This document shows, one piece after another, positions 3,806 through 58,772 of a stretch of DNA of 64,000 nucleotides. The stretch is taken from NCBI GenBank assembly GCA_964391315.1, contig CAYMJR010000004.1, positions 10,261 through 74,260 on the forward strand, read 5' to 3'. Source of the stretch: an uncultured Gammaproteobacteria bacterium. Its GTDB lineage: Bacteria; Patescibacteriota; Microgenomatia; Levybacterales; UBA12049. The notes under the pieces are model-generated. The model was not told the DNA's origin. It saw nothing but the letters and a program-made list of their open reading frames with translations, and made no database searches. How positions within the stretch are numbered: the first letter of the stretch is position 1; each line of letters opens with the position of its first letter. The translations under genes and the position numbers were made by a program.

Positions 3806-6274
3806 TCATTTAGTCCCGCCCAGCGGGATTATTTGAGTTTCAAAACTTTTCTTATCGAGTTTACTCAGAGAAATATTCAACATAGTGTTTGGTTTATAAA
3901 AACCTAATGCGCCAAAACTGATGAACGCTTGTGCAAGTGAATAGAAAAAGTCTCCCCAATTCCCATCAACGTACGTATTTGTTGCAATTAATGGATAATA
4001 AAAAGCAATAGCAAGATAAATGAAGGTAAAACCAATCAAAAGTGAATACATTGGTATCTTATACCTTCCTCCAAAAAAACCAAAGGATAATCGGAAAATA
4101 ACCAGAGCCAATGTCATTATAACGATAATCACAAAAGCATAAGCAAGATTAAGAAGCACTCTTGGGGAAGTAATAGAAGGACTGAGCAAACCATAATCTT
4201 TCACAAAAAATGCCAGAATAAAAAGAGAGAGTAGTCCAATGGCAAGGGGAGCTACAATAACAAATCGTTTACCTTGTTTTTTAAAAACAGAATATTTTGT
4301 TCCTGCTGCCTGCGAGAGTAGAAAAATACCAATCGCCCATCCATAAAAACATATCAGGAAAAAGAGATCACCCCATGAGGGATACGGGTGATTATTATGA
4401 AGAAAAATGCCGTATCCTGAGACAACAAAATCGCCAATTGACCAAAACAGCAATCCGCCTCCAATACAAATAAGTGCTTTCCCAAGAAAATTTTTGAAAA
4501 GTCCCCAGGTCGAGGCGATATAGAGTCCTGCAATTCCTCCAAACAAGGGAATGAAAGCTAATGAAAAATTAAAAAGATTACCCGTCCAGAAATTATCTTC
4601 TAATAAACTAATATGTAGACCGAACCAAAAGGCTAAATGAAAAACAACGTAGACAATAAGTATTTTTTGTAAGACGTTTATTTTCTTCGCTTCTTGTACA
4701 TTCTTTGCTAAAGAACGCAGCTTTTCGATTTCTTTTGTATATTGCAACTGATGCTCAAGAAGATTCCACAAATTAGTAATTGGATCCCAATACTGGAATT
4801 CATAACATTTCTTAAAGATAAAAATGATATTATCTATTTCTTGTCTAATCTCTGAAAAGAAATCGTTTCCTTCTTTTTCATAATGGGCAAGAAGCTTTTC
4901 ATAATATTCTGCTGCCCGAAGATAATCTGATGGACCAGTCATCATTTTCCTTGCAAACACTTTCAATAACGGATGGATACGATATCTATCATTTCCGGCA
5001 GTTTGAATAAAGGAAAGTCGTCGTAACTGCTCAAATACAGAAAATGTTTCTTGTACTGATATATTATTCAGAAATGCAGCAGCATTAATGGAGAAATCTT
5101 GTCCTTCAAATACCCCCAAGGAAATAAAAACGGTTTTTGCTTGGTGATCTAAGGTATTAAAAGCAAGCGTTGTTGCTTTAAAAAGATTTTTATCTTCATA
5201 ACTGTAATTTTGTAAATCAATTGATTCTAAATCAAACTTTTCCAAAGACTTATCCATTGATATATGAAACTTTTCACCATATGTTGCAATGATATGTGCT
5301 GAGATATGAGTTGCCAATGGTAAATGCCCAAGCTTTTCTCCTATTGATAGGATAGATTTCTTATATTTTTGAACCAAACTGGGATCAAAAATAGTTGCAA
5401 AAAGAGCTAACGTTTCTGTATCTGTAAAAGTATTAATTTTAATTGAGTGATAATGTGACGTACTATTATGAAAGTTTTCCTGTGACGTAATAATAACACC
5501 ACAATTTGAAGTATTAGGCAGTAAAAGCGAAATAGTATCCTGAGCGGTTACGTTATCAAAAATAAGCAGTACTTTTCTTTTAAGCAAAAGTGTTCTCACA
5601 ACAGATGCGCGTACTTCTGGGCTTTTAATCGTACTAATATTCTCCCCAAAAACATATGCGATTGAGAGGAGAATATCCATAATATTTGACGAATCAACTT
5701 TGTACCATAAGACGCCATCTGGATACTGATCACGGAGGAGATGACCAAGTTTCGTTGCAAGAGCTGTTTTCCCAACACCTGCCGGTCCATGGAGAAGAAT
5801 CACCTTTCCAAGAACAATCTCTCGTGAAACCTCATTGATAATCTCTTCCCTTCCAACAAAATGAAAGATATCACTTGGGACTTGAAACGGAACACTCGTG
5901 AAATCATTAAGCGCAAGTTCTTTAATTTCATTTTTCGTTAAGTACCCCTTTCCAGCTACATCAAAAAACTCATTTGCCTCTCGCAGCGTTTTTATTGCTC
6001 CTTTTTCAACAAAAATCTCTAAAATTTTGAGAACTAAAAGCCGATTAGTAGGAATACGTGTTCCTTTCTGCCAATGTGAAAAAATACTGTCTTCATAGTA
6101 AAAACCCTTTTCAGCTAACGCATCACCAAAAGACGCGAATGTTTCAAATTCAGCGCGAAGACGGTATTTCTTAAAAAGCTCTGCAAATCCTTTCATATCT
6201 CGTAATTGTAGCAAATCTTCTGTCAACTTTTCTGACAACCGTGTCATTCCTATTCTCATTACTGCTGAGTACAA
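3806..6274 (-). CDS. STAND-class (NB-ARC-like) P-loop NTPase with N-terminal HTH-like module and C-terminal polytopic membrane domain
   Basis: 822 aa. Residues ~30-116 form a degenerate XRE-like module (..SIFSHWQKGTRIP..). Walker A GPAGVGKT is at nt 5765-5788 and Walker B-like VLLIFDNV follows. A long helical region comes next, then about 8-10 hydrophobic helices in the last ~270 aa (nt ~3870-4640). The true start may be an internal Met (M7/M10). Confidence 0.65.
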   Translation of the reverse strand: MYSAVMRIGMTRLSEKLTEDLLQLRDMKGFAELFKKYRLRAEFETFASFGDALAEKGFYYEDSIFSHWQKGTRIPTNRLLVLKILEIFVEKGAIKTLREANEFFDVAGKGYLTKNEIKELALNDFTSVPFQVPSDIFHFVGREEIINEVSREIVLGKVILLHGPAGVGKTALATKLGHLLRDQYPDGVLWYKVDSSNIMDILLSIAYVFGENISTIKSPEVRASVVRTLLLKRKVLLIFDNVTAQDTISLLLPNTSNCGVIITSQENFHNSTSHYHSIKINTFTDTETLALFATIFDPSLVQKYKKSILSIGEKLGHLPLATHISAHIIATYGEKFHISMDKSLEKFDLESIDLQNYSYEDKNLFKATTLAFNTLDHQAKTVFISLGVFEGQDFSINAAAFLNNISVQETFSVFEQLRRLSFIQTAGNDRYRIHPLLKVFARKMMTGPSDYLRAAEYYEKLLAHYEKEGNDFFSEIRQEIDNIIFIFKKCYEFQYWDPITNLWNLLEHQLQYTKEIEKLRSLAKNVQEAKKINVLQKILIVYVVFHLAFWFGLHISLLEDNFWTGNLFNFSLAFIPLFGGIAGLYIASTWGLFKNFLGKALICIGGGLLFWSIGDFVVSGYGIFLHNNHPYPSWGDLFFLICFYGWAIGIFLLSQAAGTKYSVFKKQGKRFVIVAPLAIGLLSLFILAFFVKDYGLLSPSITSPRVLLNLAYAFVIIVIMTLALVIFRLSFGFFGGRYKIPMYSLLIGFTFIYLAIAFYYPLIATNTYVDGNWGDFFYSLAQAFISFGALGFYKPNTMLNISLSKLDKKSFETQIIPLGGTK
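3814..3828 (+). terminator. Candidate intrinsic terminator hairpin between convergent genes
   Basis: tcccgc-cca-gcggga hairpin followed by the T-rich ttatttgagttt, 28 nt after the stop of 3382..3786. It overlaps the last codons of the convergent 3806..6274 ORF. Confidence 0.35.
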
Positions 6275-21011: not shown

Positions 21012-22964
<1,953 letters not shown>

Positions 22965-22993
22965 ATGTGTTATAATAAAATATAGAAACAGTT

Positions 22994-23536
22994 ATGCCAG
23001 ACTTTAATAAAATACTTACACCAGGACAGGTTGATGAAGGAGAGATTAATGCAATTGTCGATATCCCTCAAGGTTCCTCACTTAAAATAGAATATGACCG
23101 TGAACATGGTATCTTTATGTTGGATCGTGTCGAACCAGATGTCTTTCCAAAACCAGTTAATTATGGATTTATCCCTGGAACAAAAGACACAGATGGAGAT
23201 GAATTGGATGTCCTCCTTGTAGCTCATGAACCAATCCCAACAGGAGTCTTGGTCAAATCAAAAATTCTTGGCATTTTCAATTTTGAAGATGACGGAGAAA
23301 TGGATTACAAAATTGTCTGTGTTCCGGCAGATGACCGCAACACCGGAGACAGTATTCAAACACTTGATGATCTTGGTAAAAGATGGAAACAAAAAATAGA
23401 GTTCCATTTTGCCCATTACAAAGATCTCAAAAAACCAGGTACAACCAAAGTGCTAGGTTGGGGAGATATTGAAGAAGCAAAGCACATTGTCCACGAGTGC
23501 ATTGACCGCTTCAAGAAAGAAGGCTTCTCGAAATAA
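22994..23536 (+). CDS. ppa: Inorganic pyrophosphatase (family I)
   Basis: IEYDRE..., YGFIPGT...DGDELDVLL and the DYKIV pattern of soluble family I PPases. Confidence 0.9.
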
Positions 23537-23541
23537 CATTT

Positions 23542-26085
23542 ATGTCACAAATCGGAAAGTTACAACAAGCAAATATTACTGAGGAAATGAAAAAAGCGTA
23601 TTTGAATTACGCTATGTCAGTTATCGTTTCCCGTGCACTTCCAGATGTCCGTGATGGGCTCAAGCCAGTTCACCGCCGCATTCTTTTTGGCATGCATGAA
23701 TTGGGTCTTGGTCATACTTCCAAATTCACAAAAAGTGCAAAGATTGTCGGAGAAGTTATGGGTAAATATCACCCACACGGAGACGCACCAATTTATGATT
23801 CACTCGTTCGTCTCGCACAAGATTTCTCAATGAGATACCCACTTGTTTGGGGACAGGGAAACTTCGGATCAATTGATGGCGATCCACCAGCACATATGCG
23901 TTATACTGAAGCACGCATGTCAGCAATTACTGCTGAAATGCTCACAGACATCGACAAAGAAACAGTTGATTTCGCACCAAACTTCGACGCATCAGAGAAT
24001 GAACCATTGTACTTACCAGCCAAACTTCCAAACCTTTTGCTCATGGGATCAGAAGGTATTGCTGTTGGTATGGCAACTAAAATCCCACCACATAATTTAG
24101 GAGAAGTAATTGATGCAATTATCTATTTGATCGGAAAAGCAAAAGTTGGAAAGTCTGCAATAAAAGAAAAAGAAGAAGCACCAGCCGTTATTACAGAAGG
24201 CGTTGAAAAACCAACCCTTGGTGAGCCAAAACTCGCACTCACCAGCGATGTTACTATTGATGAACTTTTGGAATTCGTCAAAGGACCTGATTTTCCGACA
24301 GCAGGAAATATTTATGACATTACCGAAATTAAAAACGCCTACATCACTGGCCGCGGTAAGATCGTCATCCGTGGAAAAGCAGAAATCGAAGAAATCTCAG
24401 GTGGCAAATCAGCAATTACCATCACTGAAATCCCATATCAGGTTAACAAAGCACAACTTATTGCAAAAATTGCTGATCTTGCTAAAGATAAAAAGATTGA
24501 AGGTATTTCAGATCTTCGCGATGAATCAGACAGACGGGGACTTCACATATATATTGAGTTAAAACGTGACGCCAGTCCAAAGAAGGTATTAAACAACCTT
24601 TTCAAATACACAGCTTTGCAAACAACCTTCCCAGTCAACATGGTTGCTCTCGTTGATGGCACACCACAGACACTCAATCTTAAACTCATTCTTGAGGAAT
24701 ATCTCAAGCACCGCTACATCGTTATCCGCAAAAGATCAGAATTTGAACTTCGCCAAGCAAAAGCACGCCTTCACATCTTAGAAGGACTCAAAATCGCAGT
24801 CGATCATATCGATGAAGTCATCAAGACAATCCGTGCATCAAAAGATCAGGAAGAAGCAAAAACCAATTTGATGACCAAATTTAAACTTAGCGAAATTCAA
24901 TCGGTTGCAATCCTTGACATGCAACTTCGTAGACTTGCAGCACTTGAGCGACAAAAGATTGAAGATGAGATTGCAATGATTAAAGAAACAATCGCATATC
25001 TTGAAGATCTTCTCGCACATCCTGAAAAAATTCTTGGCGTTATCAAATCAGAGTTAGTAAAACTCAAAGAAAAATATGCAGACCCACGACGAACAAAAGT
25101 CTACAAGAGTAAAGTAGGGGAGTTCTCAGAAGAAGATCTTATTCCAAATGAACCAACAGTTTTGACACTCACGAATACTGGTTACATCAAGAGACAATCG
25201 GGCAGCAGTTTCCATACGCAACACCGAGGTGGAAAAGGAATAACCGGCATGAACGTCAAAGAAGAAGACGCAATCGCACATATAAGATCGGCCATGACTC
25301 ATGACAATATCCTCTTCTTTACTAACAAAGGAAAGGCATATCAACTCAGAGCATACGAGATTAACGAAAGTAGTAGAACAAGTAAAGGAACAGCAATTGT
25401 TAATCTTTTGAACATTGAAGCAGGAGAGAAAGTCGAATCATTCATTGTTCACAATAAAGCAGTCCATGATGGCTATATCTTCCTTACTACAAGAAACGGA
25501 ACAGTAAAGAAAACAAGCATCAAAGAATTTGAAAATATTCGAAGAAACGGCATGATCGCAATCAAACTTGAAGATAAAGATGAACTTGTATGGAGTAATA
25601 TTACTGATGGAAAAAATGATGTATTGCTCGTAACTAAAGGCGGAAAAGCAATCAAATTCTCAGAAAATTCAGTAAGACCACTCGGTCGTGCAACTATGGG
25701 AGTTCGAGGTATTAAGATCGATTCCAAAGATCAAGTTATCGGAATGGCAGTTGTCACTAAAGGAGACAAAGCTGAAATGCTAGCAATTATGGAAAATGGC
25801 CTTGGTAAGAAAACACCTGTCGAACAATTCCCACTCCAGGGTCGTGGTGGACAAGGAGTAAAAGTTGCAAAAGTTACTGATCGAACAGGACAAGTTGTCG
25901 TCGCACAAGTCGTACCACCTGTTGCAGAAGAAGTCATCATCACTTCAACCAAAGGTCAGATTGTAAAATTACCAATCAATCAAATTCCAAAGCTCTCACG
26001 CGATACCCAAGGAGTTATTTTGATGAGATTTACTAACGCAACTGATAAAGTAGCATCAGCCACTTGTCTTGAAAAGTCAGAGTAA
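23542..26085 (+). CDS. gyrA: DNA gyrase subunit A
   Basis: [18 protein letters not shown], the [12 protein letters not shown] region, the catalytic [10 protein letters not shown], and C-terminal beta-pinwheel repeats. Confidence 0.97.
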
Positions 26086-27659: not shown

Positions 27660-27923
27660 AATCTATAAAAGCATTTGAGTCTACCGCAGTAGACGAGCTG
27701 AATAGGAGAAAGCCTTAAACAAGCATTACTATTCCGGAAGTCACCCGTAAAAATATGACAAAGCGTGTCGGTAACGGAGCGCAGATAATAAGTTTAGCTT
27801 ATAACTGTAATCCCCGCAGAGGGGATTTTTTATTGGCTAAGATAAACAAGGTGGTACCGTCCTAAACCTTTGGGGCCCTTGTAAGTTTCTAAGAATTTCT
27901 TAGGAATTTACAAGGGCTTTTTT
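27660..27923 (+). promoter_or_regulatory. T-box riboswitch leader (tRNA-sensing antiterminator/terminator)
   Basis: T-box core AAGGUGGUACCG at 27848-27859. The antiterminator is CAAGG (27847-51), bulge UGGUACC (27852-58), GUCC (27859-62), loop, GGGC (27873-76), CCUUG (27877-81). A competing terminator follows. A Stem III-like hairpin is at 27809-27827. A Stem I candidate spans 27671-27764, with AGUA (27688-91) opposite GAA-GUC-A (27737-43). Confidence 0.8.
27875..27923 (+). terminator. T-box leader intrinsic terminator
   Basis: A hairpin of about 20 bp, gcccttgtaagtttctaaga / tcttaggaatttacaagggc, with two G-U pairs. It is followed by TTTTTT (27918-27923), 12 nt before the ATG at 27936. Confidence 0.8.
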
Positions 27924-54118: not shown

Positions 54119-55066
54119 TTAATCTTTATTGCCACTATGGAAGGCTTTGTGGACGTCACGAAGCTGTTTATTTGTGACGTGTGTATAAATCTGCGTTGTA
54201 GCAATATTTTTGTGGCCAAGCATCTCTTGGACTGATCGAAGATCTGCACCATTGGTCAATAGATCTGTAGCAAACGAATGTCGCATGGTATGAACTGTAG
54301 CATCTACAGGAAGCCGGGCAAGTTGCACATATTTTTTGACAATCATCTCAATTGAACGAACAGTCAAACGCATTTTCTCACCGCCATTGTCTTCTTCAAC
54401 TCGTCCTGAATATCTAATAAAAAGCGGTTTAAATGCATCTGTCCGCATTTCTAAATACTTTTGAATCCACAATGCAGCGCGGTCTGAGATGAAAACAACC
54501 CGCGCACGTCCACCTTTTCCGATTACACCAAATTCACGACGTTCAATATTGATTTGCTCATGGTTAAGTTTTACTAATTCAGAAACACGAAGCCCGGTAG
54601 AGAAGAGAAGCTCCAAAACTGTCCTGTCGCGGACTCCTTCTTCTTTTGAGGTATCTGGCATAGTAACCAAACGTTCTATTTGATCCCGTTCGAGAAACTT
54701 CAAACTCCGGCTTTCTGTCTTTGGGAGGTCAATTTTGCTTGGTTCGAGAGTCTTTATATCATTTTTAATCAAAAACCGAAGGAATGACCGAAGCGCAATA
54801 ACATAATAATTTTGGGTGACTTTTTTAAGCGTTTTGCCTTTATCATTAACTTTATTCGTTAAATACACACGATATTTTCTGATTGTTGCCAAATCTAATT
54901 CTTGAATTGATTTATTAGTAGGGGAGAACCATTCATAAAAAACCTCAAGGTAGTGCCGATAATCACGAATTGTTAATTTTGATGCGTTTTTTTCAATTTC
55001 AAGATGTTCCAGAAATTGATTCATGAGGTCAGGCAGGGCGGTGTTCATGAAAACATTGTACGACAC
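54119..55066 (-). CDS. xerC: Tyrosine recombinase, XerC/XerD-like
   Basis: N-terminal SAM-like core-binding domain (FLEHLEIEKNASKLTIRDYR). The catalytic residues are in the usual order: R (GLRVSEL), H-x-x-R (HTMRHSFAT), H, and Y (HKNIATTQIYTHV). Confidence 0.8.
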   Translation of the reverse strand: MSYNVFMNTALPDLMNQFLEHLEIEKNASKLTIRDYRHYLEVFYEWFSPTNKSIQELDLATIRKYRVYLTNKVNDKGKTLKKVTQNYYVIALRSFLRFLIKNDIKTLEPSKIDLPKTESRSLKFLERDQIERLVTMPDTSKEEGVRDRTVLELLFSTGLRVSELVKLNHEQINIERREFGVIGKGGRARVVFISDRAALWIQKYLEMRTDAFKPLFIRYSGRVEEDNGGEKMRLTVRSIEMIVKKYVQLARLPVDATVHTMRHSFATDLLTNGADLRSVQEMLGHKNIATTQIYTHVTNKQLRDVHKAFHSGNKD

Positions 55067-55139: not shown

Positions 55140-56555
55140 ATGTGGCAAGAAAACTACAAAGATTGTTTGAAGTATATAGACGACTACTGGAATCAAATTA
55201 TTTATAGCCCTTCATTTATGAGACTCAAGCACCGATATATTAATATGCCGCTTTTTTTGTTGACGATTAAAACAAAAAATCCACACATAATTTATATTCC
55301 ACATTCATATTTTGTGCCAAACACCGGCCATCATAGACGCATCTACTATTGGGATAGCTATTTTATGTTCCGAGGCATTATGGGAACAAAACGGCAGTGG
55401 TTAATACGACAAATGGTAGATAATTTTATTTATCTTTTTAATCAATACCAGATTATTCCTAACTTTAATGCTCCAGCCTCTGTTAATCGCTCACAGCCAC
55501 CTTTCCTTTCATCAATGATTCTGGATAATTACCTTACCCCACTACGAGGAAAAGATACTCAGAAAACACTCGATAATGTATCGACAAGACTATACAAACT
55601 GCGAAATCAATTATGGTTCAAAAATGCCATGGCAATCGCCAAAAAGGAATATGAAATTGTCTGGATTGATGCTTCAAACAGCTATAATCATCACGTATTT
55701 GGATATAATTTATCGCGTTATGGAGACCGTGATCTTGGATATGGACATTCTTCTGAACTTGAATCTGGTTGGGATTTTACTTCACGTTTTTATAATCGCT
55801 GCCATCAGTTTCTGCCTATCGATCTTAACACCTATCTTTTTAAATATGAAAAAGATTTCGAAACAACAGCACAAATTTTGGGTAACAGAAAAGATGAAGA
55901 GTATTGGCACAAAAAAGCCTTGGAAAGACAAGCTGAAATGAATAAGTATATGTGGAATGATCAGGAAGGATTTTTCTTTGATTATGGATATACCAATCAA
56001 CAAATCAGTAACTATTTTTCCTTAGCAGGTTTTACTCCCATGTGGGCAGGCCTCGCAACAGCAAAGCAAGCAAAAAAAATGGTCAAACACTTAGCAAAAT
56101 TTGAAACGAACTACGGACTAACAATCGGCACAAAAGAATCTCTTGCTGAGGCTGTAGATGTTTCTAACATTCAGGATCGTTATCGGCCAGCAATTGAAGA
56201 GGTTATGAAACCAAAACAATGGGATTATCCCAATATTTGGTCCCCTCTTGAATATTTAACTGTGATTGGCCTCCTAAAATACGGCTATGAGGCTGATGCG
56301 AAGCGAATTATGGAAAAATCTGTGGCTGCTCACGCACGAGCATTTCGCAAACATGGCACATTTTTTGAAAAATTGGATGGTTTGACAGGAGAATCGGGTA
56401 GAGGGGCATTATACGGCGATCAGAAAGGATTCGGATGGACAAATGCAGTTTTTTTCCGGTATATTATGATTCTTGAGGCAATGGAAAAGGGGAGTATTTA
56501 CAATGAAAATATAACAAATGCGACTCCCCCGTATGCATTATCAATTCTCCACTAG
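55140..56555 (+). CDS. Trehalase (GH37)
   Basis: RRIYYWDSYF and QWDYPNIWSPLEY correspond to the two GH37 signature regions. GFGWTN lies near the C-terminus. Confidence 0.85.
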   Translation: MWQENYKDCLKYIDDYWNQIIYSPSFMRLKHRYINMPLFLLTIKTKNPHIIYIPHSYFVPNTGHHRRIYYWDSYFMFRGIMGTKRQWLIRQMVDNFIYLFNQYQIIPNFNAPASVNRSQPPFLSSMILDNYLTPLRGKDTQKTLDNVSTRLYKLRNQLWFKNAMAIAKKEYEIVWIDASNSYNHHVFGYNLSRYGDRDLGYGHSSELESGWDFTSRFYNRCHQFLPIDLNTYLFKYEKDFETTAQILGNRKDEEYWHKKALERQAEMNKYMWNDQEGFFFDYGYTNQQISNYFSLAGFTPMWAGLATAKQAKKMVKHLAKFETNYGLTIGTKESLAEAVDVSNIQDRYRPAIEEVMKPKQWDYPNIWSPLEYLTVIGLLKYGYEADAKRIMEKSVAAHARAFRKHGTFFEKLDGLTGESGRGALYGDQKGFGWTNAVFFRYIMILEAMEKGSIYNENITNATPPYALSILH

Positions 56556-56558
56556 TAT

Positions 56559-56580
56559 CTACTTTTCACAGTTTTCACAG
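56559..56580. repeat. Left boundary motif CTACTTTTCACAG-TTTTCACAG
   Basis: Its reverse complements occur at 57674-57683 (CTGTGAAAAG) and 57692-57702 (GTGAAAAGTAG). Confidence 0.45.
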
Positions 56581-57450
56581 AAACACATTCTGCGAAGTGG
56601 AAATAATGGATAAACGGCTATACTGCATATGATTAATTACTAAACAATTTTATTAATTTAAAAAGTCTGTTAACCATTTAGCATAATTATTGCTCAAGTA
56701 ATTATTTATCAGCTTACTAGCTTAATTAAACTTTACAGACAACAAACAATCGCCATTATCTGCCATCAGATGTCATATTACTAATCAAAATTATGACAGT
56801 ATAGATGTCTCCAAAAAACCAGACTTTGCCAAGATGATGATATGTACATCTCACATATTTGAGGGGCCTTCTAGGGCCCTACATGACATCGCATTTTTAG
56901 CCTTGGACTAATATATCAACATAAATGAGACTCCTCCACCGATTTTTTTGGTGAGGGGAGTATTCGAGGCTAAAAAACTTCAATTTAGCCTCGAAAGCTC
57001 AGCTTATAGCAATAAAGGAATATAAAAATTACGACATGACCATAGATGGGTAAGAAGACCTAATATTAAGAATCCACTGATTTTGCAATTAGACAATTTT
57101 AAAGTAATAATTTTTTTTAAACTTCATCGATGAGAAGTCCTCCCCCTGGGAAATCCCATCCGTGACTTCGTAAAAGTATTATTGTGCGAAGTTAAGATCT
57201 AACCTCCTATGACACGTTACTGTCATATAACTAATCATGCGTTTATCTGTCTTGCAACAGAGATGCAACAAGCTTATTGCCTTATTAATAATTCACAACG
57301 AGACCTCCTCACCCAAAAGAGTACGATTATGATGATCGTCACTACATTATTTATTCTTAAAAGAAAGGCTAAAGGATATTTAATAATTAATAACTGCTTA
57401 TTCTTTTCCCGAGCGAGGGCCCCTCCACTTCATGATCAATACATAACTAA

Positions 57451-57474
57451 ATTAGATTGATTTATCAATCTAAT
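57451..57474. repeat. 24-nt near-perfect palindrome ATTAGATTGAT-TT-ATCAATCTAAT
   Basis: Read directly. It has 11-bp arms around a TT centre, and can also be parsed as 9-6-9. Confidence 0.6.
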
Positions 57475-57673
57475 CTTGCTATTTTAGCCTCAAATTATTT
57501 ATATTTAGAAAAGGGCTTTCGTATTTTTTTGCATGATCTAGTAGCTTAGCAAGAAAGGGTTGGAAGTGCTTCTCACTATCTTCGAAGTAGCTTACTTGCC
57601 TAAAATACAGAAATACAAAGCAAATTACACACAAATTATGCCTAAACTGATAATTCATTCTCCCTATGTGAGG

Positions 57674-57702
57674 CTGTGAAAAGTTATTTCCGTGAAAAGT
57701 AG
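57674..57702. repeat. Right boundary motif CTGTGAAAAGT-N7-GTGAAAAGTAG (inverted relative to 56559-56580)
   Basis: An exact 11-nt inverted match (57692-57702 vs 56559-56569) plus an exact 10-nt match (57674-83 vs 56562-71). Confidence 0.45.
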
Positions 57703-57905
57703 CCTGAGAGTTATCCACAAGTATATCAAACTATATCATTTTATTATAAGACTTTATTATGGGACTCTCCTTCCCTCTCCTCTATCTGTAGTTGTTAATA
57801 AATTTTCTGAAGCAAATATTCAAATGTTTAACAAATATTTTATATTACTTTGCCCTATGAAGACTTTTGATATTTCTGATACTTCTAATACCCTTCATAA
57901 GCCCC

Positions 57906-58772
57906 CTACTTCCCCCATGAAGTAAAAAGAATTAACACAAAAAAAGTAATACAGCTCACCCATACATATTCCCACAAAATCCCTTTAAAAAGTCTTCTTT
58001 CAAACCATATATGAGAAAGCCCGACAATCGTATAGAAAAAACCTGTCAAAAAAAGAGCAATGACAGTCGGACTGCTTGGCCAAAACCATAACAGTGTTGC
58101 TACTTCGACGAGACATGCCGTAAGTGTTAAAATCCATGTTTGAATATTTGGTATTGTTTTTTGTAAATTGTATGTCCATAACGATCCAGATACTAAGAAA
58201 TAGGTATAGAGAAGAACAAATGGGATGAGAAAAAAGACATTGATGTGAAATGTATAGACAATATTTGTTAAAAAGAAATATGAGATAAGAGTAATAACAA
58301 AAGACACAATGCGCGCTCCTGAAAGCAGTGCAATTGTCCGCATCGAAGAGACAACCAAAATATTTTGGCTTAAAAATAATGAATATAATCCGAATGCATA
58401 AACAGCAGTTAAAATAATTCTTGAAATAAAAAGTGTTGGTGTAAGAAAATAAAATAAGCCGAAAGCTAAACTATAAAAAAATGGCAAAATAAAACTTTGA
58501 TATGCTTTATTCTCTTTGACATCGGAATGGATTGCCCAAAAAAGAAAAAAATTTGTTAATGCAGAAAGGATAAAAACAGTAATAATTCCCGATTTTGTGA
58601 ATTGTAAATTTTCAAGCTCAGCAAGAAAAATACCTAAAGACAAAATAATGACCGCGGCAACGAACTTCTGTCTTTTATCGATTGAAAATAAGCGTATTCC
58701 CCTCTTCCCCCGTTTGTTCGAAAATAGACGTGAAAATCGTGATGTGAAACCGTTGGTACTTTGTTTACTCAT
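57906..58772 (-). CDS. Polytopic integral membrane protein, unknown function
   Basis: 288 aa, a basic N-terminus then ~8 TM helices. It lies downstream of yebC on the same strand. Confidence 0.5.
   Translation of the reverse strand: MSKQSTNGFTSRFSRLFSNKRGKRGIRLFSIDKRQKFVAAVIILSLGIFLAELENLQFTKSGIITVFILSALTNFFLFWAIHSDVKENKAYQSFILPFFYSLAFGLFYFLTPTLFISRIILTAVYAFGLYSLFLSQNILVVSSMRTIALLSGARIVSFVITLISYFFLTNIVYTFHINVFFLIPFVLLYTYFLVSGSLWTYNLQKTIPNIQTWILTLTACLVEVATLLWFWPSSPTVIALFLTGFFYTIVGLSHIWFERRLFKGILWEYVWVSCITFFVLILFTSWGK

Follow-up and report, generated by a model that had tools for sequence, protein, structure and literature searches.

A dif-like site linked to a xer gene, a converging polar motif and a DnaA-box cluster in a conserved intergenic locus of Levybacteria

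An oversized spacer between a trehalase gene and a DUF5656 gene

The DNA analysed here, referred to as the window, is a 64-kb stretch of contig CAYMJR010000004.1 (assembly GCA_964391315.1) from an uncultured bacterium. The window is tightly packed (38% G+C), and an initial annotation made from the sequence alone drew attention to one oversized spacer, which lies between the stop codon of a trehalase gene (56555) and that of a minus-strand gene encoding a DUF5656 membrane protein (57906). This spacer is real: it measures 1350 nt (56556-57905), or 2% of the window length, whereas the other spacers in a greedy map of open reading frames (ORFs) are mostly shorter than 140 nt and the two runners-up measure 314 and 320 nt. 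Comparative analysis indicates that the gap is a conserved intergenic locus of Levybacteria, situated between the genes for DUF5656 and a Xer recombinase, and that it is a cluster of protein-binding sites and not a gene. It is probably a dif/Xer locus at which the polarity of the chromosome converges, accompanied by ∼0.9 kb of conserved DNA with predicted binding sites that include a cluster of DnaA boxes. Three features had been overlooked in the initial annotation, namely a 28-bp palindromic site (57165-57192, hereafter block D), the Xer gene (54119-55066) and a perfect DnaA box (57711-57719). The principal genes and sites are:

54119-55066, minus strand: gene for a XerC/D-family tyrosine recombinase of 315 aa (xer), classified by NCBIfam scores
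55055-55066, minus strand: xer-proximal half-site GTGTCGTACAAT, which overlaps the xer start
55140-56555, plus strand: trehalase gene, an insertion between the conserved element and xer that lies outside the system
56587-56596, minus strand: dif-arm-like half-site (C)TTCGCAGAAT, beside the trehalase stop and followed by two strain-specific TTTTCACAG boxes at 56563-56580
56931-56960, plus strand: first copy of the polar motif AGGGGAG belonging to the other arm (56954-56960), with a local inverted partner
57137-57149, minus strand: block E, G-rich sequence CCAGGGGGAGGAC right after block D, the last copy resembling the polar motif on the DUF5656-sense strand
57165-57192, minus strand: block D, candidate dif site of 28 bp, ACTTCGCACAA-TAATAC-TTTTACGAAGT, with 11-bp arms and a 6-bp centre
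57906-58772, minus strand: DUF5656 membrane-protein gene, the retained upstream neighbour; the conserved element begins 0-170 nt past its stop

The gap is conserved among Levybacteria

The DUF5656 gene is preceded by yebC, and its homologues assign the source organism to Candidatus Levyibacteriota (Levybacteria; Microgenomates, Candidate Phyla Radiation (CPR)). The same gap, at 99.9-100% identity, occurs in seventeen public contigs, which therefore represent the same strain. In relatives whose DUF5656 protein is 74-81% identical, 0.9-1.4 kb right after the DUF5656 gene is likewise free of ORFs. BLASTN aligned ∼1 kb of the gap to its closest relatives at ∼68% identity with many insertions and deletions, which is barely below the DNA identity of the DUF5656 gene itself in these genomes (75-77%). 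A profile of the element built from three sequences was then used with nhmmer, and in ∼65 of 80 species-level Levybacteria genomes its match adjoins the DUF5656 gene on the downstream side and shares the orientation of that gene. Each profile-positive locus features 700-1600 nt without ORFs after DUF5656, and the element is also present in more than 100 metagenome contigs. On the minus strand, the conserved portion of ∼900 nt extends from window position ∼57860 to ∼56930, while the part from 56556 to ∼56900 is common to the closest relatives only, and decreasingly so.

Block D has the layout of a dif site and is linked to xer

Block D reads ACTTCGCACAATAATACTTTTACGAAGT in the window, where the outer pair is compensated, and its consensus is ATGTCG[C/T]ACAA-TAATAC-TTTTACGAC[A/G]T, which includes an outer inverted repeat. 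When one arm is reverse-complemented, it agrees with the other at 8 of 11 positions. The site is near-invariant in Levybacteria loci that were found independently via DUF5656, and its pattern occurs in at least 120 metagenome contigs with exactly one match in each, as well as once in the 64-kb window; many of these contigs are so distant that the profile recognises block D alone. Symmetry is favoured at the outermost variable pair (TA 61, TG 54, CG 27 and CA 4), and the inner position of the stem shows no pairing constraint.

The architecture of dif consists of two ∼11-bp arms and a 6-bp centre (PMC5357621), and block D agrees with the definition given there, which allows ∼28-31 bp, partly symmetric arms and a centre of 6-11 bp. 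In a comparison by eye, without scoring, the left arm ATGTCGCACAA resembles the XerC arms of published dif sites, such as those of Burkholderia (AATGTCGATAA) and Shewanella (..GCGCACAAT), and the right arm matches dif of Magnetospirillum (TTATGCGACAA) at 8 of 11 positions (table in PMC2731167). In 100 loci, which amounts to essentially all those with enough sequence, block D is followed at a distance of 250 to 4000 nt by a xer gene, and this gene invariably has the DUF5656 orientation. The protein encoded in the window scores 248 bits against the NCBIfam model for XerD, 244 against XerC and 210 against XerA, all under the equivalog cut-offs.

Sequences resembling a single dif arm accompany the xer gene. 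In most loci, (Y/R)TGTCGYANAAT is located 10-60 nt upstream of the xer start, where it often abuts a −35-like TTGACA, and within the 64 kb the minus-strand occurrences of the shorter TCGYANAAT are limited to 57189 (block D), 56595 and 55063 (xer start). The half-site at 56587-56596 aligns with one that lies 62 nt upstream of xer in a related locus (L018). As xer is present in 100 loci and trehalase, encoded on the strand opposite to xer and DUF5656, in only 36, the ancestral order is DUF5656 - element - xer. The earlier statement that no promoter is required in the gap is therefore misleading, since in this ancestral order the element leads into xer.

In the lineage of the window, the trehalase gene is situated exactly between the half-sites at 56595 and 55064, and in the trehalase-free locus L018 the half-sites are 64 nt apart. 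The trehalase gene was accordingly considered as a cassette between dif-like half-sites, in the manner of integrative mobile elements exploiting Xer (IMEX) or dif modules. This holds for the window and locus L049 and was rejected for the 36 trehalase loci in general; insertion points differ in other trehalase-bearing loci. Block D was also considered as a coding start, with a Shine-Dalgarno sequence, an ATG and a peptide (MSHNN..) that mimics the Xer N-terminus. The window lacks the ATG and several lineages feature ACG. Because the ATG is not kept and all three codon positions are invariant, block D is not coding.

The most likely identity of block D is that of the chromosomal dif site. Its two near-palindromic 11-bp arms are predicted to be bound by the XerC/D-family recombinase encoded downstream, and strand exchange across the 6-bp centre would resolve chromosome dimers. 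The dif-arm-like half-site at the xer promoter may allow Xer to control its own expression.

A polar motif and gene orientation converge on the locus

Strand-skewed words were sought in the flanks of ∼190 oriented loci. The heptamer AGGGGAG occurs to the left of the element 156 times on the DUF5656-sense strand and twice on the other strand, and to the right 18 times on the sense strand versus 155 times on the other. The window has 19 copies on the plus strand (4245-56954) and none on the minus strand; most of the 19 are inside genes, two of them inside minus-strand genes. A Shine-Dalgarno or coding-strand effect was rejected as the cause, given that copies are found inside genes far from starts and at equal density in either gene orientation (right of the site, antisense AGGGGAG occurs at 0.24/kb in sense-strand genes and 0.21/kb in antisense genes).

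Aligned on block D, the sense copies reach block E (+0 to +50) and then cease, and the antisense copies begin at +100 to +300, at the conserved ACTCCCCTC block. By position, no antisense copy was found left of block D, the left-flank count containing two. The strand switches between +50 and +150 from block D, hence within ∼100 nt or so of the site, independently of gene strand. Block E is conserved as GGGGAGGA or GGGAGAAGTGG, and the block that carries the first copy of the other arm (56931-56960) is conserved as ACTCCCCTCA...GGTGGAGGAG; this block is the 10-bp hairpin of the initial annotation. Genes are oriented in the same converging manner, at 414:65 to the left of the locus versus 91:189 to the right.

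On each arm, G-rich FtsK-orienting polar sequences (KOPS) point from the origin to the terminus (ter), thereby directing FtsK to dif (PMC2680272), and the convergence of AGGGGAG at block D corresponds to the location of a KOPS-type motif. AGGGGAG is a candidate KOPS-type or Chi-type word of Levybacteria which, pointing at block D from both arms, could steer the FtsK translocase as KOPS do. Among the options listed in the initial annotation was a terminus-associated region, and this option fits a locus that features a dif-like site beside xer and a convergence of both polar motif and gene orientation. Several of the "inverted boundary motifs" and "long-range complementarities" reported at the same time are present but turn out to be simply G-rich copies that flank the site on opposite strands (GGTGAGGGGAG at 56950-60; GAGGGGCC at 56861 and GGCCCCTC at 57418).

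The genes for gyrase, which are origin-proximal in many bacteria, are located 31-36 kb from the locus (gyrB and gyrA, 21015-26085, plus strand). They are co-oriented with the AGGGGAG polarity and have no adjoining dnaA or dnaN.

A DnaA-box cluster and iterons lie upstream of block D

The other conserved features of the gap are:

56964-56994, no strand assigned: inverted pair of GAGGCTAAA iterons, corresponding to the 11-bp hairpin of the initial annotation, with more copies at 56896, 57366 and 57483
57078-57130, no strand assigned: A/T-rich stretch that follows blocks D and E
57452-57491, minus strand: block C, GAGGCTAAAAT followed by the palindrome TTAGATTGAT..ATCAATCTAA, conserved
57516-57531, minus strand: block B, CAAAAAAATACGAAAG, with the near-invariant consensus GAAAAAAATACGAA
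57674-57719, minus strand: DnaA-box cluster, comprising a perfect TTATCCACA at 57711-57719 (plus strand) and TTTTCAC(A/G)G at 57674-57682 and 57690-57698 (minus-strand reading)
57721-57767, minus strand: tandem TGATATAG(T)TT x2 (57721-57738) and two CCTATAAT-type iterons, GTCTTATAAT at 57743-57752 and GTCCCATAAT at 57758-57767, among the most conserved columns
57766-57784, minus strand: purine-rich block AGAGGAGAGGGAAGGAGAG, whose consensus GAGAGGGGAGTA includes the polar motif on the DUF5656-sense strand

The perfect TTATCCACA is unique in the 64 kb and has two TTTTCAC(A/G) boxes within ∼50 bp, as in the DnaA-box cluster of an oriC. It is present in 55 of 67 elements, compared with four occurrences in 628 kb of flanks, and nearly all lineages retain the cluster. 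When up to one mismatch is allowed, TGTGGATAA is found 200-700 nt upstream of block D in 122 loci, in a single orientation and together with TTTTCACA boxes. Even among 35 loci too divergent for the profile, 30 feature a box 135-650 nt upstream, mostly a perfect one, and the chance expectation for such a box is ∼0.003 per locus.

Read on the minus strand from the DUF5656 stop, the order of the modules is purine-rich block, CCTATAAT-type iterons, TGATATAGTT x2, DnaA boxes, variable spacer, block B, block C, a variable ∼250 nt, block D, block E, A/T-rich stretch, CTATAGG with two GAGGCTAAA, and ACTCCCCTC with its local inverted partner. The CCTATAAT-type iterons number one to five copies, and their position and orientation vary by lineage. 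GAGGCTAAA occurs 81 times in the elements, on both strands, versus six times in 628 kb of flanks, and the inverted pair of the window is replaced in other lineages by a direct 10-nt tandem, TTGAGGCTAA x2. Pair counts for the block C palindrome (435 Watson-Crick, 53 GT, 26 AC and 94 other) indicate that it is mostly conserved in sequence, with little compensation. The AT content peaks at 0.73 between +50 and +100 from block D, and many relatives carry lineage-specific arrays of A/T-rich heptamers at the fixed position +61 to +100 (Tandem Repeats Finder: AATTTCT x4.3, AAACGAA x4.6 and ATTAGAA x4.4), ∼600-700 nt from the DnaA boxes. Because the boxes and the iterons (CCTATAAT, GATATAG and GAGGCTAAA) are fixed 135-700 nt upstream, DnaA presumably binds here, and it may act at this upstream cluster as initiator or regulator.

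Heptamer arrays of four to six copies were seen in loci L024, L041, L049, L064, L072, L113, L184 and others, with varying sequence and fixed position, and a second array or the TTGAGGCTAA x2 tandem is located at ∼+190 to +260 from block D. Readings of the palindromes as sites for parS, CRP/FNR or IHF were rejected on inspection, as neither spacing nor consensus fits.

Other hallmarks of an origin were looked for as well. In the basal unwinding system (BUS) of bacterial origins, DnaA-trios lie within 16 bp of a box (PMC8287927); by eye and following those criteria, no run of NAN trinucleotides was seen next to a box. Neither the window, translated in six frames, nor the ORFs of ∼190 loci revealed a DnaA signature, and dnaA and dnaN were not found within the 64-kb window or 6-10 kb of the other loci. 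Instead of the divergence and the strand-composition switch of an oriC, genes and AGGGGAG converge here and the composition does not switch. A repeat with a 9-nt period, TATYAGAAR x3, is located at 57863-57891 and also directly past the DUF5656 stop in loci L019 and L041. Nearly all of its trinucleotides have a central A, which resembles the NAN of DnaA-trios; it is confined to the closest relatives and has no adjoining DnaA box.

Base-composition skew does not switch at the locus

Skew was examined locally, over 6-57 kb per locus. Expressed for the DUF5656-sense strand, GC skew at third codon positions (GC3 skew) ranges from +0.12 to +0.16 to the left as well as to the right of the locus, whatever the gene orientation; in a regression, the intercept was 0.135 ± 0.006 and the effect of side −0.012 ± 0.007. 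As the sign of the skew is constant, composition makes one and the same strand appear "leading" left and right of the site, though the polar motif and the genes switch. The regression, together with the signs at individual loci, rules out an ordinary bidirectional origin or an ordinary terminus defined by skew. Known dif sites are near the shift point of GC skew, with published offsets of up to ∼100 kb from the skew maximum (PMC2731167), and block D does not lie at such a shift.

Several observations weigh against a dif/Xer locus. Of 64 loci, 61 have positive GC3 skew left and right of the site; in the window, GC3 skew is negative on the plus strand in almost every gene, with a constant sign across 64 kb; and T>A words are skewed alike on both sides. 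The central region and the right arm of block D deviate from the classical dif consensus in the comparison by eye, in which the XerD-arm core TTATG is unmatched. Since block E, the last G-rich motif on the sense strand, lies 30-45 nt beyond block D, the polarity switch adjoins the 28-mer and is not centred on it. The evidence that block D is single-copy and that there is no other dif reaches the level of contigs and the window only, and ∼900 bp of conserved accessory motifs are far beyond what a dif site needs. Finally, the xer-proximal motif could be a plain promoter element, in which YANAAT approximates a −10 hexamer, and block D could be its copy.

How such a locus would relate to replication can be viewed in two ways. 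Tentatively, origin and terminus may be juxtaposed, with the DnaA cluster, iterons and A/T-rich repeats constituting an oriC from which replication proceeds unidirectionally, rightward in the DUF5656 orientation, to end beside dif. This would extend the interpretation as a dif/Xer locus and does not exclude it, and it is the only model that joins dif and polar convergence with the DnaA boxes, iterons, A/T repeats and uniform skew. The perfect box, the TTTTCACA boxes and the iterons are deeply conserved in a ∼1-kb non-coding region of a compact genome, and the strand on which G exceeds C and T exceeds A is the same to the left and to the right of the locus. Monotonic cumulative GC skew has been described for three other Microgenomates genomes (order UBA1400), for which the authors proposed either that origin and terminus are neighbours or that theta replication is unidirectional, and named no locus (Kadnikov et al. 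2020, PMC7143001). Those genomes and ours belong to the same superphylum and have one G-rich strand regardless of gene orientation; they differ in that skew was calculated there for whole genomes, whereas we describe a concrete locus in Levybacteria and its local skew.

If replication were unidirectional, skew would fall away as a criterion for oriC. On the other hand, there are only about three DnaA boxes, no DnaA-trio run was seen by the box, the A/T-rich repeats are 600-700 nt away from the boxes, dnaA and dnaN are missing from the ranges stated above, and genes and polar motifs converge as they do at an ordinary terminus. Because the genes converge on the locus, half of them would be head-on to a unidirectional fork. 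It is thus conceivable, if rather doubtful, that levybacterial chromosomes start at a DnaA-box origin 135-700 bp from dif and replicate one-way, such that origin and terminus are one locus, perhaps also in other Microgenomates with monotonic skew. The polarity of two arms (AGGGGAG and gene orientation toward dif) would then be a retained ancestral state, and the doubt applies to this combination as a whole.

The second view, which is possible although we would not call it probable, is that of an ordinary dif/terminus, or of a dif that is crossed by a single long-range fork from a distant origin. The DnaA boxes would be titrating, like datA, or regulatory, for example by coupling xer expression to the cell cycle, and the uniform skew would have another cause or reflect very unequal replichores. 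Convergence of polar motifs and genes and linkage to xer are classical features of a terminus, the published offsets between dif and the skew maximum leave room for such a position, and E. coli has DnaA-binding control regions outside oriC, datA and DnaA-reactivating sequences (DARS) (PMC4585315). It fits less well that the sign of the skew in the window is constant for at least 57 kb on one side, which is the arm where the polar motif predicts the other leading strand, that the boxes are separated from the xer start by 0.5-4 kb, a large distance for an operator at a promoter, and that the other iterons and the A/T-rich repeats are left unexplained.

The gap is neither a mobile element nor a gene remnant, and RNA structure is sparse

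The initial annotation had also offered a mobile element, a gene remnant and a structured non-coding RNA (ncRNA) as explanations. Inverted motifs at the gap edges, the nearby tyrosine recombinase gene and the variable gene content between the element and xer would suit a decayed mobile element, such as a miniature inverted-repeat transposable element (MITE) or insertion sequence (IS) remnant, or a pseudogene. In fact, self-BLAST found no second copy of the gap in the window, other contigs carry one copy each, and no similar DNA was found in plasmid and phage collections. A MITE, which would occur as dispersed copies, was rejected in view of this single copy, of synteny across the phylum and of edge repeats (56563-80) that are not conserved even in the closest relatives. 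No coding signal was detected either: substitutions among the three closest sequences show no lag-3 periodicity in the gap, whereas the DUF5656 gene used as control is periodic, and the ORFs of the gap have no Pfam match, are not conserved and are called on different strands in different relatives. A decayed mobile element or pseudogene is therefore effectively refuted.

An ncRNA function for the 0.9 kb, for instance a small RNA that runs from near block D to a variable hairpin past block E, or a long xer leader, is improbable. It would agree with the ATGTCG/CGACAT stem, which tolerates T-G far more than C-A (54 versus 4), with hairpins of variable sequence seen by inspection after block E in the window and in loci L018 and L019, with the extended −10-like hexamers TGATATAGT and CCTATAAT, and with z-scores of the minimum folding energy of about −3. 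These z-scores are similar on the two strands (−2.9 and −3.4), and such a symmetric folding signal is what DNA palindromes produce. Rfam gave zero matches at gathering thresholds in the window, the gap and 10 homologous loci, be it to large structured RNAs of the GOLLD, ROOL or OLE type or to any other family, with chance-level matches only at E ≤ 10, and no tRNA was found in the window. RNAalifold, applied to profile-based and MAFFT alignments, detected no structure in sliding windows of the profile alignment on either strand, gave for eight relatives an energy of −20 kcal/mol over 1167 columns, to which covariation contributed −0.5, and for 166 sequences around block D returned only a 6-bp stem, the inner pair of which is unconstrained; as these alignments took no account of structure, weak local structures may escape this analysis. 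A scan for sigma-70 promoters and terminators was uninformative and yielded no terminator-like site. In addition, the motif modules are reordered, inverted and variable in copy number between lineages, which is the behaviour of protein-binding sites and not of an RNA fold.

Short repeats within the gap

Nearly all motifs listed in the initial annotation are genuine when checked against the sequence, including the hairpins of 11 bp (56964-56994) and 10 bp (56931-56960). They are also clustered beyond chance expectation: five of the six copies of TTTAGCCT in the 64-kb window fall inside the gap, as do three of the four copies of TTTTCACAG and 6 of the 34 copies of AGCTTA, for which ∼0.7 would be expected from the gap length. 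Conservation distinguishes these motifs. The boundary boxes TTTTCACAG x2 at 56563-56580 exist, with inverted copies at 57674-57702, but the former are not conserved even in the closest relatives. Similarly, the 17-nt direct repeat (56771 and 57221), each copy of which is accompanied by an inverted heptamer, is present but specific to the strain or lineage and not kept in the closest relatives.

The 17-nt repeat forms part of two strain-specific palindromes, one just upstream of block D (57208-57237, TATGACA-N6-TGTCATA) and a second at 56771-56798 (TGTCATA-N14-TATGACA). At the position of the second palindrome, relatives feature TGTCAGAAT-like or TGTCG-like sequences, which may be degenerate copies of a dif arm.

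Comparison with known Xer and origin systems

Xer/dif recombination with polar guiding motifs is a known mechanism, and the candidate system of Levybacteria can be compared with several of its versions. With XerCD/dif and KOPS/FtsK of E. coli, and CodV-RipX/dif of B. subtilis, it shares a 28-bp site of 11 + 6 + 11 bp and, as for the classical KOPS GGGNAGGG, a G-rich polar motif directed toward the site from both arms. It differs in that the motif is the 7-mer AGGGGAG, with a much stronger polarity (∼98% and ∼90%) and a higher density (∼1 per 4 kb). Unlike classical dif, block D is off consensus in its centre and right arm, is not at a skew shift and has a DnaA cluster fixed alongside.

Its arms are more palindromic than those of XerCD dif sites, as is the case for xerS/difSL of streptococci and lactococci and xerH/difH of epsilon-proteobacteria, which also share imperfect inverted arms, a short centre and linkage to xer. 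xerS is immediately adjacent to difSL, and many difH sites are 16-282 bp from xerH (PMC5357621, PMC2731167), whereas block D is 0.25-4 kb from xer, with other DNA and sometimes trehalase between them. The arms are unrelated to those of difSL and difH and nearer to classical XerC-arm sequences, and there is no switch in GC skew at the site.

The resemblance to a bacterial oriC with its DnaA cluster and unwinding element or BUS lies in the perfect TTATCCACA with weaker boxes within 60 bp, the iterated short motifs, the A/T-rich tandem repeats and the large conserved intergenic region. In contrast to such origins, the sign of the skew does not change, dnaA and dnaN are not near, no DnaA-trio run was recognised, and motifs and genes converge.

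For CPR/Patescibacteria, literature searches retrieved nothing on a dif site, a polar motif for segregation or a locus controlling replication. As far as the searched literature goes, the identification in CPR, the site, the word AGGGGAG, the fixed DnaA cluster and the decoupling from GC skew are new. The 28-bp candidate dif, the candidate KOPS-type word and the DnaA cluster can be mapped in any closed Microgenomates genome, and the locus thereby turns the monotonic GC skew of Microgenomates (PMC7143001) into a directly testable question, including whether replication starts beside dif. Even on a conservative reading the locus is unusual, in that polar motif and gene orientation switch where the composition skew does not. 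In practical terms, the motifs are markers for orienting and checking CPR assemblies.

Additional observations

Many of the contigs that carry the locus (L022, L025-L029, L034 and others) are publicly labelled as Gammaproteobacteria, Methylomirabilota, Saccharimonadales, Limnocylindrales or Pacearchaeota; these labels, including that of uncultured Gammaproteobacteria, are probably taxonomic mislabels of metagenome-assembled genomes. In the 320-nt spacer, which had been annotated as a T-box leader, there is indeed an Rfam match to T-box (27665-27883, plus strand), but it is below threshold (29.8 bits versus a gathering score of 93, E = 3e-4); it may represent a divergent CPR T-box. Finally, a gene at 3806-6274 (minus strand) encodes a protein of 822 aa that has an NB-ARC (STAND NTPase) domain and possibly functions in defence or signalling.

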